Below, piece by piece: positions 1,391 through 6,879 of a DNA stretch of 9,895 nt. Origin of the DNA: a virus. Lineage: Duplodnaviria > Heunggongvirae > Uroviricota > Caudoviricetes. Position 1 is the stretch's first letter. Each line of letters starts with the position of its first letter. The stretch is from the IMG/VR virus record IMGVR_UViG_2529292886_000013, one strand, 5' to 3'. Below the pieces are notes generated by a model. The model was not told the DNA's origin. It was given only the letters and a program-made list of their open reading frames with translations, and ran no database searches. A program made the translations under genes and the position numbers.

Positions 1391-1422
1391 CAGGTCACTA
1401 TCAGTCAAAATAAAATCATTAT
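1391..1422. promoter_or_regulatory. Int arm-type binding sites (P'1-P'3) in the att P' arm, overlapping the int 3' end
   Basis: Tandem matches to the arm-type consensus (C/A)AGTCACTAT: AGGTCACTAT at 1392-1401 and CAGTCAAAAT at 1402-1411, with a third degenerate copy following. Assignment is from knowledge of lambda attP architecture. Confidence 0.55.
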
Positions 1423-2489
1423 TTGATTTCAATTTTGTCCCACTCCCTGCCTCTGTCATCACGATACTGTGATGCCATGGTGTCCGACTTATGCCCGAGA
1501 AGATGTTGAGCAAACTTATCGCTTATCTGCTTCTCATAGAGTCTTGCAGACAAACTGCGCAACTCGTGAAAGGTAGGCGGATCCCCTTCGAAGGAAAGAC
1601 CTGATGCTTTTCGTGCGCGCATAAAATACCTTGATACTGTGCCGGATGAAAGCGGTTCACGACGAGTAGATGCAATTATGGTTTCTCCGCCAAGAATCTC
1701 TTTGCATTTATCAAGTGTTTCCTTCATTGATATCCCGAGAGCATCAACATGCAATGTTGTAGGGATGGCAATTTTTACGCCTGTTTTGCTTTGTTCGACA
1801 TAAAGATATCCATCTACGATATCAGACCACTTCATTTCGCATAAATCACCAACTCGCTGCCCGGTAACAACAGCCAGTTCCATTGCAAGTCTGAGCCAAC
1901 ATGGTGATGATTCTGCTGCTTGATAAATTTTCAGGTATTCGTCAGCCGTAAGTCTTGATCTCCTTACCTCTGATTTTGCTGCGCGAGTGGCAGCGACCGG
2001 GTTTGTTGTTATATGGCCTTCAGCTATTGCCTCTCGGAATGCATCGCTCAGTGTTGATCTGATTAACTTGGCTGACGCCGCCTTGCCCTCGTCTATGTAT
2101 CCATTGAGCATTGCCGCAATTTCTTTTGTGGTGATGTCTTCAAGTGGAGCATCAGGCAGCCCCCTCCTTATTGCTTTAATTTTGCTCATGTAATTTATGA
2201 GTGTCTTCTGCTTGATTCCTCTGCTGGCGAGGATTTTTTCGTAGCGATCAAGCCATGAATGTAACGTAACAGAATTATCACTGTTGATTCTCGCTGTCAG
2301 AGGCTTGTGTTTGTGTCCTGAAAATAACTCAATATTGGCCTGTATTGCTTCAGTGATTGCTATCCTCCTGTCTCGGCCTAAACCAAACTCTTTACCCGTC
2401 CTTGGGCCCCTGTAGCAGTAATATCCATTGTTTCTTATATAAAGGTTAGGGGGTAAATCCCGGCGCTCATGACTTCGCCTTCTTCCCAT
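1419..2489 (-). CDS. int: Integrase (tyrosine recombinase), lambda Int
   Basis: 356-aa ORF matching lambda Int essentially end to end (MGRRRSHERRDLPPNLYIRNNGYYCYR... ASQYRDDRGREWDKIEIK, catalytic Tyr in the ASQYRDD context). Stop codon lies inside the att P' arm. Confidence 0.97.
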   Translation of the reverse strand: MGRRRSHERRDLPPNLYIRNNGYYCYRGPRTGKEFGLGRDRRIAITEAIQANIELFSGHKHKPLTARINSDNSVTLHSWLDRYEKILASRGIKQKTLINYMSKIKAIRRGLPDAPLEDITTKEIAAMLNGYIDEGKAASAKLIRSTLSDAFREAIAEGHITTNPVAATRAAKSEVRRSRLTADEYLKIYQAAESSPCWLRLAMELAVVTGQRVGDLCEMKWSDIVDGYLYVEQSKTGVKIAIPTTLHVDALGISMKETLDKCKEILGGETIIASTRREPLSSGTVSRYFMRARKASGLSFEGDPPTFHELRSLSARLYEKQISDKFAQHLLGHKSDTMASQYRDDRGREWDKIEIK

Positions 2490-2685
2490 TTCTGATCCTC
2501 TTCAAAAGGCTACCTGTTACTGGTCGATTTAAGTCAACCTTTACCGCTGATTCGTGGAACAGATACTCTCTTCCATCCTTAACCGGAGGAGGGAATATCC
2601 TGCATTCGCGCACCCATCGACGAACTGTTTCAAGGCTTCTTGGGCGTCGCTGGCGTGCGTTCCACTCCTGAAGTGTCAAGTACAT
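2467..2685 (-). CDS. xis: Excisionase, lambda Xis
   Basis: 72-aa ORF MYLTLQEWNARQRRPRSLETVRRWVRECRIFPPPVKDGREYLFHESAVKVDLNRPVTGSLLKRIRNGKKAKS. The 3' end overlaps the int start by 23 nt, as in lambda. Confidence 0.95.
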   Translation of the reverse strand: MYLTLQEWNARQRRPRSLETVRRWVRECRIFPPPVKDGREYLFHESAVKVDLNRPVTGSLLKRIRNGKKAKS

Positions 2686-2711
2686 CGCAAAGTCTCCGCA
2701 ATTACACGCAA

Positions 2712-2734
2712 GAAAAAGCCGCCATCAGGCGGCT
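2712..2734 (-). terminator. Putative intrinsic terminator (minus strand) between the 55-aa ORF and xis
   Basis: GC stem GCCGCC (2718-2723) / GGCGGC (2728-2733) with a 4-nt loop. On the minus strand it is followed by a U-run (plus-strand AGAAAAA, 2711-2717). The stop codon of the upstream ORF lies in the loop. Confidence 0.45.
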
Positions 2735-2892
2735 TGGTGTTCTTTCAGTTCTTCAATTCGAATATTGGTTATGTCTGCATGTGCTATCTGCGCCCATATC
2801 ATCCAGTGGTCATAGCAGTCATTGATGTTCTCTGCTTCGATAACTCTGTTGAATGGTTCTCCATTCCATTCACCTGTGACTCGGAAGTGCAT
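2725..2892 (-). CDS. Small hypothetical protein (55 aa), conserved lambda early-left ORF
   Basis: Hand translation of the minus strand: MHFRVTGEWNGEPFNRVIEAENINDCYDHWMIWAQIAHADITNIRIEELKEHQAA. GGAG lies 8 nt upstream of the ATG. Below the 60-aa cut-off, so absent from the ORF track. Position corresponds to an unnamed hypothetical ORF between xis and ea8.5 in lambda (from memory). Confidence 0.6.
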   Translation of the reverse strand: MHFRVTGEWNGEPFNRVIEAENINDCYDHWMIWAQIAHADITNIRIEELKEHQAA

Positions 2893-2929
2893 TTATCATC
2901 TCCATAAAACAAAACCCGCCGTAGCGAGT

Positions 2930-2962
2930 TCAGATAAAAGAAATCCTCGTCAGTGCGAGGAT
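2930..2962 (-). terminator. Putative intrinsic terminator (minus strand)
   Basis: Stem ATCCTCG (2943-2949) / CGAGGAT (2956-2962) with loop TCAGTG. On the minus strand it is followed by UUCUUUUAUCUG (plus-strand CAGATAAAAGAA, 2930-2942). Confidence 0.5.
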
Positions 2963-3345
2963 GCTGTTCATTGCTGCTATACACTTTTTTGCTCTCAACG
3001 TAAGCGGTAGCTCATTCTGTTGGGTTGGTGCAGTTGCTTTTAGGAAATGCTATTTACCCCTTAAACGTCGGCTGAAAGAGCTAAAATCCATGCAAAAAAT
3101 TTACGCAATTTTGTGTATTATTGTGCAGTAAGTAATGAGCTATTTTCTGCGCAAAAAATGGATGGTAAATTTGTCCGGGGCAGGAAAAATTTTATGGGCG
3201 CTAAACATGAAAAAAGATTCGTATCCTTATTTGATTTGCATGACAGTTTTAGGCCTTTATTTTCCTTTTCTTCTGGTGGCGGGCAGATATTTACAGGGTC
3301 ACGTTTCTTAATCAGAGTATATCCCACTATTACATTCTGTTTAGC

Positions 3346-3732
3346 ATGGGAATAGCTTTTCTGTTATCTCTGTTTTGGGTTAAGAAGGGGATAGTAAAAC
3401 AAAGCGGCTGGAAGAGTCTGTCAGCATACCTTAAGGTTTATGCAGGGATGTGCATATTTGCTGGATTTTTTCTGATTATACCCCTTACAACACTAACTTA
3501 TTTTTTGCCTGGAGAGACATCGTCTTATGTTGCACCGTATCGGTATACTTCCGGTAGTTCAAAAAGTTGTTCTGGAGCTGAGGTGGATGACCCCGATCTA
3601 CATGAGAATATTCGCATTTGCTATCCGTATGGCAATTATGAGTACGATAATATTATCTATGTTGAAAAGAAAATTAATACATTAGGTGCGGTAGTAACAT
3701 ATGCACAGACCGCGCGTGATGATACTGAATGA
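3346..3732 (+). CDS. Hypothetical membrane-type protein (128 aa) in an AT-rich island; candidate accessory (moron) gene of unknown function
   Basis: Only sizeable ORF in the non-lambda segment, and on the opposite strand to the surrounding early-left operon. Hydrophobic stretches GIAFLLSLFWV and YAGMCIFAGFFLIIPLTTLTYFL are followed by a polar C-terminal part. Local GC is about one third by hand count, against about half in flanking lambda-type DNA. No clear Shine-Dalgarno; start uncertain. A stem-loop terminator follows. Confidence 0.45.
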   Translation: MGIAFLLSLFWVKKGIVKQSGWKSLSAYLKVYAGMCIFAGFFLIIPLTTLTYFLPGETSSYVAPYRYTSGSSKSCSGAEVDDPDLHENIRICYPYGNYEYDNIIYVEKKINTLGAVVTYAQTARDDTE

Positions 3733-3766
3733 GATAGTATATAGCGGGCAAGTTTTAGTTAATTTA

Positions 3767-3800
3767 TCGAGGTAATATAATTTACCTCGACTCGTTTATT
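3767..3800 (+). terminator. Putative intrinsic terminator (plus strand) downstream of the 128-aa ORF
   Basis: Perfect 9-bp stem TCGAGGTAA (3767-3775) / TTACCTCGA (3782-3790) with loop TATAAT, followed by a T-rich tract (CTCGTTTATTCTGG). Confidence 0.45.
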
Positions 3801-3942
3801 CTGGTATTAATATTTCGCTTTACGATCGATTTTTATCTGATGATATCATGCGGTTTTCATATACTGACTTACTGTCTTTTCTCCGTTAGCGATTTTCTCC
3901 TGCTCAGCGATGATTTTATCTTTGGCTTCTAGTTAATTTCGC

Positions 3943-4164
3943 TCACTTCGAACCTCTCTGTTTACTGATAAGTTCCAGATCCTCCTGGCAACTTGCACAA
4001 GTCCGACAACCCTGAACGGCCAGGCGTCTTCGCTCATCTATGGGATCGCCACACTCACAACAATGAGTGGCAGATATAGCCTGGTGGTTCAGGCGGCGCA
4101 TTTTTATTGCTGTGTTGCGCTGTAATTCTTCAATTTCTGATGCTGAATCAATGATGTCTGCCAT
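3943..4164 (-). CDS. DksA/TraR-family C4 zinc-finger protein (lambda Orf73-like; probable RNA polymerase secondary-channel binder)
   Basis: 73-aa ORF MADIIDSASEIEELQRNTAIKMRRLNHQAISATHCCECGDPIDERRRLAVQGCRTCASCQEDLELISKQRGSK. It has a CxxC-x17-CxxC zinc-finger motif and the size typical of TraR-family proteins. Confidence 0.8.
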   Translation of the reverse strand: MADIIDSASEIEELQRNTAIKMRRLNHQAISATHCCECGDPIDERRRLAVQGCRTCASCQEDLELISKQRGSK

Positions 4165-4216
4165 CTTCCATTAATCCCTGAATTGTTGGTTAATACGCTT
4201 GAGGGTGAATGCGAAC

Positions 4217-4240
4217 AATAAAAAAGGAGCCTGTAGCTCC
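4217..4240 (-). terminator. Putative intrinsic terminator (minus strand) between the orf61-region ORF and the TraR-like ORF
   Basis: Stem GGAGC (4226-4230) / GCTCC (4236-4240) with loop CTGTA. On the minus strand it is followed by a run of U (plus-strand AATAAAAAA, 4217-4225). Confidence 0.45.
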
Positions 4241-4262
4241 CTGATGATTTTGCTTTTCATGC

Positions 4263-4544
4263 TCACCGTTCCTTAAAGACGCCGTTTAACATGCCGATCG
4301 CCAGGCTTAAATGAGTCGGTGTGAATCCCATCAGCGTTACCGTTTCGCGGTGCTTCTTCAGTACGCTACGGCAAATGTCATCGACGTTTTTATCCGGAAA
4401 CGGCTGTCTGGCTTTTTTGATTTCAGAATTAGCCTGACGGGCAATACTGCGAAGGGCGTTTTCTTGCTGAGGTGTCATTGAACAAGTCCCATGTCGGCAA
4501 GCATAAGCACACAGAATATGAAGCCCGCTGCCAGAAAAATGCAT
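4263..4544 (-). CDS. Hypothetical small protein at the lambda orf61 position (altered relative to lambda; start uncertain, ATG at 4544 or 4478)
   Basis: 93-aa ORF on the track; the internal start MTPQQENALRSIARQANSEIKK... would give 71 aa. The lambda-type orf61 start (ATG complement of 4572-4574) is present but is followed after 9 codons by an in-frame stop (TGA, complement of 4545-4547). Confidence 0.5.
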   Translation of the reverse strand: MHFSGSGLHILCAYACRHGTCSMTPQQENALRSIARQANSEIKKARQPFPDKNVDDICRSVLKKHRETVTLMGFTPTHLSLAIGMLNGVFKER

Positions 4545-4554
4545 TCAGTGGTTG

Positions 4555-4746
4555 TCATACCAGGTCTCTCTCATCTGCTTCTGCTTTCGCCACCATCATT
4601 TCCAGCTTTTGCGAAAGGGATGTGGCTAACGTATGAAATTCTTCGTCTGTTTCTACTGGTATTGGCACAAACCTGACTCCAATTTGAGCAAGGCTATGTG
4701 CCATCTCAATACTCGTTCTTAACTCAACAGGAGATGCTTTGTGCAT
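4555..4746 (-). CDS. Lambda Orf63-like small protein
   Basis: 63-aa [66 protein letters not shown]. Same length and position as lambda orf63, immediately left of orf60a/exo. Confidence 0.8.
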   Translation of the reverse strand: MHKASPVELRTSIEMAHSLAQIGVRFVPIPVETDEEFHTLATSLSQKLEMMVAKAEADERDLV

Positions 4747-5578: not shown

Positions 5579-6360
5579 GCTGCCACCTTCTGCTCAGTGG
5601 CTTTCTGTTTCAGGAATCCAAGAGCTTTCACTGCTTCGGCCTGTGTCAGTTCTGACGATGCGCGAATGTCGCGGCGAAATATCTGGGAACAGAGCGGCAA
5701 TAAGTCGTCATCCCATGTTTTATCCAGGGCGATTAGCAGAGTGTTAATCTCCTGCATGGTTTCATCGTTAACCGGAGTGATGTCGCGTTCCGGCTGGCGT
5801 TCTGCAGTGTATGCAGTATTTTCGACAATGCGCTCGGCTTCATCCTTGTCATAGATACCAGCAAATCCGAAGGCCAGACGGGCACACTGAATCATAGCTT
5901 TATGCCGTAACATCCGTTTGGGATGCGACTGCCACGGCCCCGTGATTTCTCTGCCTTCGCGGGTTTTGAATGGTTCGCGGCGGCATTCATCCATCCATTC
6001 GGTAACGCAGATCGGATGATTACGGTCCTTGCGGTAAATCCGGCATGTACAGGATTCATTGTCCTGCTCAAAGTCCATGCCATCAAACTGCTGGTTTTCA
6101 TTGATGATGCGGGACCAGCCATCAACGCCCACCACCGGAACGATGCCGTTCTGCTTATCAGGGAAGGCGTAAATTTCTTTCGTCCACGGATTAAGGCCGT
6201 ACTGGTTGGCGACGATCAACAATGCGATGAACTGCGCATCGCTGGCATCGCCTTTAAATGCCGTCTGGCGAAGAGTGGTGATCAGTTCCTGTGGGTCGAC
6301 AGAATCCATGCCGACACGTTCAGCCAGCTTCCCTGCCAGCGTTGCGAGTGCTGTACTCAT
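5575..6360 (-). CDS. bet: Lambda Beta (Red beta) single-strand annealing protein
   Basis: 261-aa ORF matching lambda Bet over its full length ([85 protein letters not shown]...). Confidence 0.97.
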
Positions 6361-6662: not shown

Positions 6663-6735
6663 GGCCGAACTCCTGAAATAGCTGTGAAAATATCGCCCGC
6701 GAAATGCCGGGCTGATTAGGAAAACAGGAAAGGGG

Positions 6736-6879
6736 TTAGTGAATGCTTTTGCTTGATCTCAGTTTCAGTATTAATATCCATTTTTTATAAGCGTCGACGG
6801 CTTCACGAAACATCTTTTCATCGCCAATAAAAGTGGCGATAGTGAATTTAGTCTGGATAGCCATAAGTGTTTGATCCAT
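6736..6879 (-). CDS. kil: Lambda Kil (host killing / cell-division inhibitor), 47 aa
   Basis: The C-terminal 47 aa of the 115-aa track ORF ([47 protein letters not shown]) equal lambda Kil as recalled. Confidence 0.8.

Follow-up and report, generated by a model that had tools for sequence, protein, structure and literature searches.

In P2-like prophages, the gpA-gpQ (old/tin) locus is a hotspot at which anti-phage systems are abundant (Rousset et al. 2022, PMC9122126); cargo unrelated to defence, for example partition systems and cytolethal distending toxin, is also present there (PMC9122126). System #4 in Table S5B of that study is a single protein of 181 amino acid residues, labelled '3 TM', which has no Pfam domain and occurs 470 times in the P2 hotspot of E. 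coli (PMC9122126). As its sequence is absent from the file of cloned systems in the same paper (PMC9122126), system #4 was catalogued and apparently neither cloned nor tested there.

A second described relative of the gene studied here belongs to phage 434. The gene CPT_434_36 (OL657226, positions 27296-27862) is annotated as a 'putative membrane protein' of 188 amino acid residues, and its uninterrupted frame encodes 200 residues if it is read from the first ATG. It lies between ORF55, with the terminator tL4, and a TraR-like gene, and the locus is the same in phages 2B8 and mEp332. The literature that we searched on the accession numbers, on mEp332, and on the exclusion functions of phage 434 contained nothing on this gene, and we found no paper that links the 434 island to the '3 TM' cargo of the P2 hotspot. 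The known Hex protein of phage 434 is encoded by a different gene, in the immunity region.

By kind only, the protein can also be compared with P22 SieA, HK97 gp15, and T4 Imm, in that it is a small prophage-encoded inner-membrane protein from a moron-like unit with its own terminator.

In the present study, we examined a stretch of prophage DNA of 9,895 nucleotides (hereafter, the window) in which a preliminary description had noted an AT-rich island with a plus-strand open reading frame (ORF) of 128 codons, taken as an intact membrane-protein gene. We conclude, with a probability of roughly 0.85, that the island is real and moron-like, and that the 128-aa ORF is the untranslated tail of a longer membrane-protein gene, which was broken by a 5-bp deletion and is intact in phage 434. 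Entries for this feature already exist in three places: as a pseudogene in RefSeq, as a gene in the annotation of phage 434, and as PHROG 1416 and system #4 of Rousset et al.

Results

The prophage and the limits of the island

The window is 100% identical to positions 1662802-1672696 of E. coli O157:H7 strain F3113 (NZ_CP038374.1). It contains ybhC, followed by a defective lambda-type prophage. The features around the island are as follows.

1419-2489, minus strand: int.
2467-2685, minus strand: xis.
2725-2892, minus strand: ORF55, the homologue of lambdap35 (match to PHROG 676); conserved lambdoid backbone, outside the island.
2912-2962, minus strand: tL4-type terminator region of the leftward (PL) transcript, with two hairpins in the terminator scan; backbone.
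2989-3930: AT-rich cargo island of about 942 bp (about 0.94 kb), in the slot of ea8.5 and ea22 of lambda.
3943-4164, minus strand: TraR/DksA-type zinc-finger ORF (PF01258 and PHROG 54); backbone, right flank of the island.

Further genes on the minus strand are orf63- and orf60a-like genes and then exo, bet, gam, and kil; beyond kil, the plus strand carries a truncated O gene followed by P, ren, and ninB. The terminator t-L4 is annotated at the equivalent position in M60848. An Rfam scan of positions 2600-4300 gave no credible RNA family.

The limits of the island were taken from the edges of homology. In more than 200 lambdoid and Stx phages, the match on the left side was limited to window positions 2893-2988 (the ORF55-tL4 region), and on the right side, the homology to lambda resumes at position 3931 (lambda 30381-31011 against window 3931-4560, 97.6% match); thus, the island proper is 2989-3930. 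Both flanks are common to lambda and many Stx phages, and the DNA between them differs. The foreign DNA of the preliminary description is therefore real, although its limits of 2963-3945 were slightly too wide. Its placement of the island in the ea8.5/ea22 slot agrees with the lambda genome, in which lambdap35 (ORF55), ea8.5, and ea22 are found at the equivalent locus. The slot between ORF55/tL4 and the TraR-like ORF is the same in lambda; however, the sequences within it are unrelated, and the lambda genes belong to the PL operon on the minus strand, in contrast to the plus-strand gene of the island. Lambda has an intact TraR-like ORF of 73 amino acid residues, absent from the lambda RefSeq annotation, the end of which coincides with the start of ea22.

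The GC content is 37.8% in 2963-3945 and 48.4% in the remaining prophage DNA of the window, with the lowest value for 300 nucleotides in 3601-3900 (34.3%). It is thus clearly lower, as had been stated, but the earlier estimate of about one third was slightly too low. The plus-strand ORF at 3346-3732 (128 aa) exists, but it is not the single one, as others are found at 2961-3131, 3113-3355, and 3135-3311. The first of these, with 56 residues, is annotated as a 'putative membrane protein' in phage 434; it is probably no gene, as it starts in the tL4 hairpin, crosses the edge of the island, and has no family match.

The island is also present in phages 434, 2B8, and mEp332. Positions 2893-3945, which include the whole island, are 99.3% identical to phage 434 (OL657226), and in the pairwise alignment the window differs by only two substitutions and one 5-bp gap. 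The upstream block and the terminator hairpin are identical in the two. In contrast to phage 434, the window lacks these 5 bp, with a frameshift as the result, and also lacks ORF114, which lies between xis and ORF55 in phage 434. Within E. coli, the gene was found in lambdoid prophages with different integration modules, always with the TraR-like gene adjacent.

A frameshifted gene in the island

The features of the gene and its surroundings are as follows.

3074-3206, plus strand: upstream non-coding block, a candidate promoter/operator, which moves with the gene between lambdoid and Salmonella P2-like contexts.
3111-3125, plus strand: direct repeat TTGTG-N5-TTGTG with a 10-bp period, unique in the window (0.03 chance matches expected).
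3207-3732, plus strand: pseudogene of a three-helix membrane protein of 176 residues, with the conserved family start MKK(D/Y)SYPYL at 3207.
3207-3311, plus strand: truncated frame from the true start, 34 codons, MKKDSYPYLICMTVLGLYFPFLLVAGRYLQGHVS, followed by a stop.
3254/3255, plus strand: site of the 5-bp deletion after codon 16 (CTGAT/TGATC, with a CT microrepeat at the flanks), from the alignment with phage 434.
3346-3732, plus strand: the 128-aa ORF, the in-frame 3' remainder, which begins at the internal Met49 (176-aa numbering) within transmembrane (TM) helix 2.
3767-3790, plus strand: terminator-like hairpin of 9 pairs with a 6-nt loop and a T-rich tail, 35 nt past the stop, from the terminator scan.

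The N-terminal piece of the broken frame corresponds to the ORF at 3135-3311 in the window. PGAP annotates 3135-3732 as a 'hypothetical protein, frameshifted' (a pseudogene) in both F3113 and PV15-279. As all the homologues outside E. coli start at the position of the ATG at 3207, the functional gene most likely has 176 codons (3207-3732 with the 5 bp restored), and the starts that give 200 and 188 residues would be alternatives.

To determine how common the deletion is, we used a probe of 80 nt across the junction with 5426 complete E. coli genomes. The stretch was present in 914 of them (about 17%); 911 of these contained the intact form of 85 nt, and the deleted form was found in 3. Thus, the frameshift is rare and limited to a few strains of O157:H7. 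Since two other complete genomes share this form of the junction, an assembly error is an unlikely cause of the deletion.

The reading of the preliminary description, that the 128-aa ORF is an intact and independently expressed moron gene which gives the lysogen a membrane-protein function, has to be considered against this background. The ORF is open and starts with ATG, it keeps TM helix 3 together with all of the C-terminal domain, and the hairpin terminator lies behind it; products of 128 residues were also predicted by gene callers on some contigs. However, its start lies inside helix 2, 48 codons downstream of the start common to all family members; no Shine-Dalgarno sequence can be seen in front of 3346, the frame is continuous in nearly all E. 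coli copies, and RefSeq flags the copy in the window as a pseudogene. The many gene calls of this length on short metagenomic contigs may reflect either the same frameshift or the choice of start by the gene caller. We thus regard an intact 128-aa gene as very unlikely. Homology to a larger disrupted gene, the outcome that the preliminary description itself had named as speaking against its gene, is what the comparison returned: the ORF is the 3' part of a longer gene, continuous in phage 434 and in the great majority of the E. coli copies. The N-terminal half of the ORF, noted as hydrophobic, is made up of segments of the full protein: part of TM helix 2, the predicted cytoplasmic loop, and helix 3. 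Neither lysogenic conversion nor phage exclusion, the functions suggested for the ORF, can be assigned to it in this strain, which has no functional gene because the frame is broken.

A narrow protein family under purifying selection

A family search of 5.8 billion proteins gave 74 matches, all unnamed or 'hypothetical', from the genera Escherichia, Shigella, Salmonella, Enterobacter, Klebsiella, and Cedecea. When 1.84 billion cluster representatives were searched exhaustively with an HMM, only 61 were found at E <= 0.001, and therefore the family is narrow. The intact gene has the RefSeq entries WP_000120064/WP_000120062. Outside E. coli, the homologues have 169-180 residues, and all have Met at the place that corresponds to window 3207. 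In 20 aligned sequences with identities down to 43%, 30 columns were invariant, including two cysteines and the motif CSGA-V-DP-L---I-ICYP-G-Y. Separately, a protein of 3074 residues (P0154) gave nine weak matches to the C-terminal motif; it has no informative Pfam match.

Between the genes of phage 434 and Salmonella, pN was 0.18 and pS was 0.72. As pN is far below pS, the reading frame is under purifying selection. This result bears on the explanation that the island is a non-functional recombination scar in which the family ORF is fortuitous. The low GC content, the lack of a recognised domain, and the pseudogene in the window would all fit such a scar; however, the selection on the frame, the invariant columns across six genera, and a confident fold prediction (see below) stand against it. 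For the family, we consider this explanation refuted and its chance negligible; it is true only of the copy in the window.

The whole 90-position profile of PHROG 1416, the function of which is not annotated, matched the last 88 residues of the protein (E = 2e-50). In contrast to the full protein, this unannotated profile is limited to helix 3 plus the beta domain. PHROG 1416 was the only PHROG matched, and no annotated PHROG family was found. Scans of the restored protein against Pfam and NCBIfam gave no match and no enzymatic or transport domain, and a scan against PADLOC-DB v2 gave no family at E <= 1.

The protein of system #4 and the 434 protein are 52% identical over 168 residues (E = 3e-57). 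They share three helices and a C-terminal domain with the motif CSGA..V.DPDL...I.ICYP.G.Y; however, system #4 is found in another family of host phages and in another slot. As system #4 was catalogued without a test, this comparison carries over no function.

Predicted structure and topology of the intact protein

We modelled the restored sequence by AlphaFold2 with the family alignment (pLDDT 86, pTM 0.71). The model has three long helices (residues 5-29, 38-61, and 69-101) and then, in 105-171, five beta strands; the C-terminal domain modelled alone gave a pLDDT of 91. Hydropathy analysis gave three hydrophobic segments, in agreement with three membrane helices. The intact protein is thus predicted to consist of three TM helices and a small five-stranded C-terminal beta-barrel that holds the two invariant cysteines. 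A structure search against BFVD gave nothing significant, and a sequence search of the PDB with the family profile gave no match.

Basic residues mark the N-terminus (MKK) and the loop that joins helices 2 and 3 (five lysines), and the C-terminal domain, with the invariant cysteines, is net acidic. Because of this distribution of charges and cysteines, the N-terminus would be inside and the C-terminus outside, and the C-terminal domain would be periplasmic and probably disulfide-bonded.

With the 5 bp restored, the sequence in the window is homologous to the family over the whole protein and has the three TM helices and the beta domain with both invariant cysteines. The copy itself lacks the uninterrupted frame of about 170-200 codons, as shown by the deletion and the RefSeq pseudogene flag; judged by its sequence, it is a dead member of the three-helix cargo family.

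In profile comparisons by hhalign, the probability was 0.2% for P22 SieA and 0.9% for HK97 gp15, and homology to either family was not detected. To our knowledge, a structured periplasmic beta-barrel is not a feature of SieA, gp15, or Imm.

Upstream block, terminator, and moron-like anatomy

Comparison of the window with the two closest Salmonella P2-like loci by blastn gave homology that begins at 3111 in one locus (L004) and at 3074 in another (L005) and extends to 3700, and thus takes in about 100-130 bp of DNA 5' of the conserved start at 3207. The TTGTG repeat is included in this region; copies with the 10-bp period number two in L004 and three in L005, both of which are P2-like prophages. 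In the annotation of phage 434, the repeat at 3111-3125 is a consensus CII site. We doubt that this site is functional, because the repeat and the closest -10-like sequence are only about 4-8 nt apart and because the repeat is kept in the Salmonella P2-like prophages. We know of no P2-type phage that encodes CII. A promoter scan detected no sigma-70 consensus promoter upstream of the gene.

The 9-bp stem-loop at 3767-3790 that had been described as a terminator was recovered by the terminator scan, as a consensus match only; the sequence after the hairpin is CTCGTTTATT.

In three respects, the island has the anatomy expected of a moron: the DNA at the locus is variable among close relatives (lambda and many Stx phages), its base composition is distinct from that of the rest of the prophage, as given above, and it has the terminator-like hairpin of its own. 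The moron reading of the preliminary description thus holds in most respects, as distinct and mobile cargo DNA replaces ea8.5 and ea22 and has one gene, opposite to the PL operon, with a hairpin behind it; it fails for the gene itself, which is frameshifted. We conclude that the island is truly mobile cargo, moron-like in its anatomy, and that its gene is dead in this strain.

Loci of the intact gene

P2-like prophages of Salmonella (70% and 58% identity) and Klebsiella (55% identity) carry the gene between Q, which encodes the portal, and the replication gene A; its orientation is opposite to that of A. The neighbours in these P2-like loci are variable: a pair of genes for proteins of 81 and 119 residues, a YafO toxin gene, or an AAA_16 gene pair. 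A lone gene is present at unrelated chromosomal sites in Enterobacter, Klebsiella sp., and Cedecea, and the copies in Enterobacter and Klebsiella sp. have a host-like GC content of 52-56%. We found no conserved partner gene at any locus examined.

As a module, the intact gene is self-contained: about 100 bp of DNA upstream of it are conserved in the closest relatives, no partner gene is conserved, and the copy in the lambdoid island has a hairpin terminator of its own. It occupies accessory slots of two unrelated types of temperate phages, namely the distal end of the early-left region in lambdoid phages and the gpA-gpQ hotspot in P2.

These loci bear on two alternative functions. One is orphan immunity, in which the intact protein would protect against a toxin that acts on membranes, for example a pore-forming colicin, a CDI toxin, or a T6SS effector. 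Like this protein, the immunity proteins for pore-forming colicins are in general small multi-pass proteins of the inner membrane, and the solitary gene scattered singly over many loci would also be consistent with immunity. However, no toxin gene is adjacent in any locus examined, and we know of no colicin immunity protein with a conserved, structured periplasmic beta-domain, a point that we count against this explanation. Overall, it appears improbable.

The other is that the family is a factor of lysogenic conversion or envelope physiology, which acts in a host process or in stress tolerance and is carried for the benefit of the host rather than against phages. The lone chromosomal copies in non-phage settings, with host-like GC, fit a general envelope function equally well, the defence database gave no match, and the P2 hotspot also bears virulence and maintenance cargo. 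On the other hand, the protein has no enzymatic or transport domain, and the family is very narrow and patchy and recurs in phage hotspots rich in genes for inter-phage competition. We regard a host-directed role as possible but on the unlikely side.

Discussion

We propose, tentatively, that the intact protein excludes superinfecting phages. The protein would probably be made from the prophage independently of PL transcription and would probably act alone, at the inner membrane and in the periplasm, where it may block the entry of the genomes of superinfecting phages; this would be superinfection exclusion at the level of the envelope. Exclusion is favoured because the gene recurs in two unrelated accessory slots of phages, one of which is a validated defence hotspot. 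It is the single most likely role, at somewhat less than an even chance, and is drawn only from the location of the gene. Non-defence roles in the envelope or in lysogenic conversion rank second and are rather unlikely, and orphan toxin immunity ranks third with a small chance.

A more specific version of the exclusion proposal is that the family is a new single-protein defence, a superinfection exclusion protein with a periplasmic beta-barrel, which lambdoid and P2-like prophages would share and about 17% of complete E. coli genomes would contain, and that the window carries a naturally inactivated allele. We consider this version doubtful enough to be offered as a suggestion, with about one chance in three. 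In this strain, whatever function the gene had has presumably been lost.

The copy in the window is of small importance, as it is a pseudogene already flagged by RefSeq in a decayed prophage. The family is of greater interest, as it is found in the classical phage 434, in 914 of the 5426 complete E. coli genomes, and as system #4 of the P2 hotspot. The link between the 434 island and the '3 TM' cargo of the P2 hotspot makes the family easy to test, by comparison of the 434 allele with the natural frameshift allele. If the exclusion reading is true, the naturally inactivated allele in the window would be a ready-made negative control.

Prophage decay and the immunity region

The prophage is defective. 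A stretch of about 13.7 kb in close relatives (O157:H7 LSU61 and O55:H7 strains) corresponds to the 9.9 kb of the window, and from this comparison a deletion between the DUF2528 gene and O appears to have removed the immunity region, comprising N, cI, cro and cII as well as the 5' portion of O. The affected segment (6663-8396) contains the following features.

6848-7011, cIII, frameshifted
7084-7452, DUF2528 gene, one border of the apparent deletion
7789-8396, O gene, truncated and frameshifted, the other border of the apparent deletion

ORFs flanking the island

An ORF for a 73-aa TraR/DksA-type zinc-finger protein is intact in lambda between ea22 and orf61 (lambda 30392-30613, corresponding to 2693-2914 of the lambda segment L023), where it is without annotation in RefSeq NC_001416; its product differs by one residue from that encoded at window 3943-4164. 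On the other side of the island, phage 434 (L001) has a 114-aa ORF, ORF114, between xis and ORF55 (L001 1960-2304, compared with window 2685-2725), which is absent from both the window and lambda. The 114-aa gene is also present in another E. coli prophage (L018), in which no annotated ORF55 adjoins the island.

The left boundary of the island is spanned by one further ORF.

2961-3131, plus strand, 56-aa ORF, annotated in phage 434 as CPT_434_35, 'putative membrane protein'

This ORF starts within the tL4 hairpin and gave no family match; it is probably not a gene.

The island gene and its relatives

A direct repeat, TTGTG-N5-TTGTG(CAG), with a 10-bp period precedes the conserved start of the island gene by about 85 bp. 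The repeat, in two to three copies, is common to the lambdoid island (window 3111-3125) and the Salmonella P2-like prophages (L004, about 5905-5920; L005, about 5886-5915). It is labelled as a putative CII site in the phage 434 annotation.

Many gene calls of 128 aa on short metagenomic and Logan contigs (P0077 and P0084-P0089) are identical to the 128-aa ORF of the preliminary description, the 3' remainder of the island gene. These calls may reflect either the same 5-bp deletion or the choice of start by the gene caller.

The very large protein P0154 (3074 aa) gave nine weak matches to the C-terminal domain, at positions 122-158 of the profile (E = 1e-6 overall), and a Pfam scan of it was uninformative; the matches may be due to chance or to a shared beta-hairpin repeat.

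The chromosomal homologues in Enterobacter (L007) and Klebsiella sp. (L019) have a host-like GC content of 52-56%, compared with 39% in the E. coli lambdoid copy, and both adjoin a gene for a LysR-type regulator. In Enterobacter the regulator gene follows the homologue on the same strand after 16 bp, and in Klebsiella sp. the two genes are convergent. The host-like GC content and the LysR-type neighbour hint that these homologues may have a native, regulated role in the chromosome.
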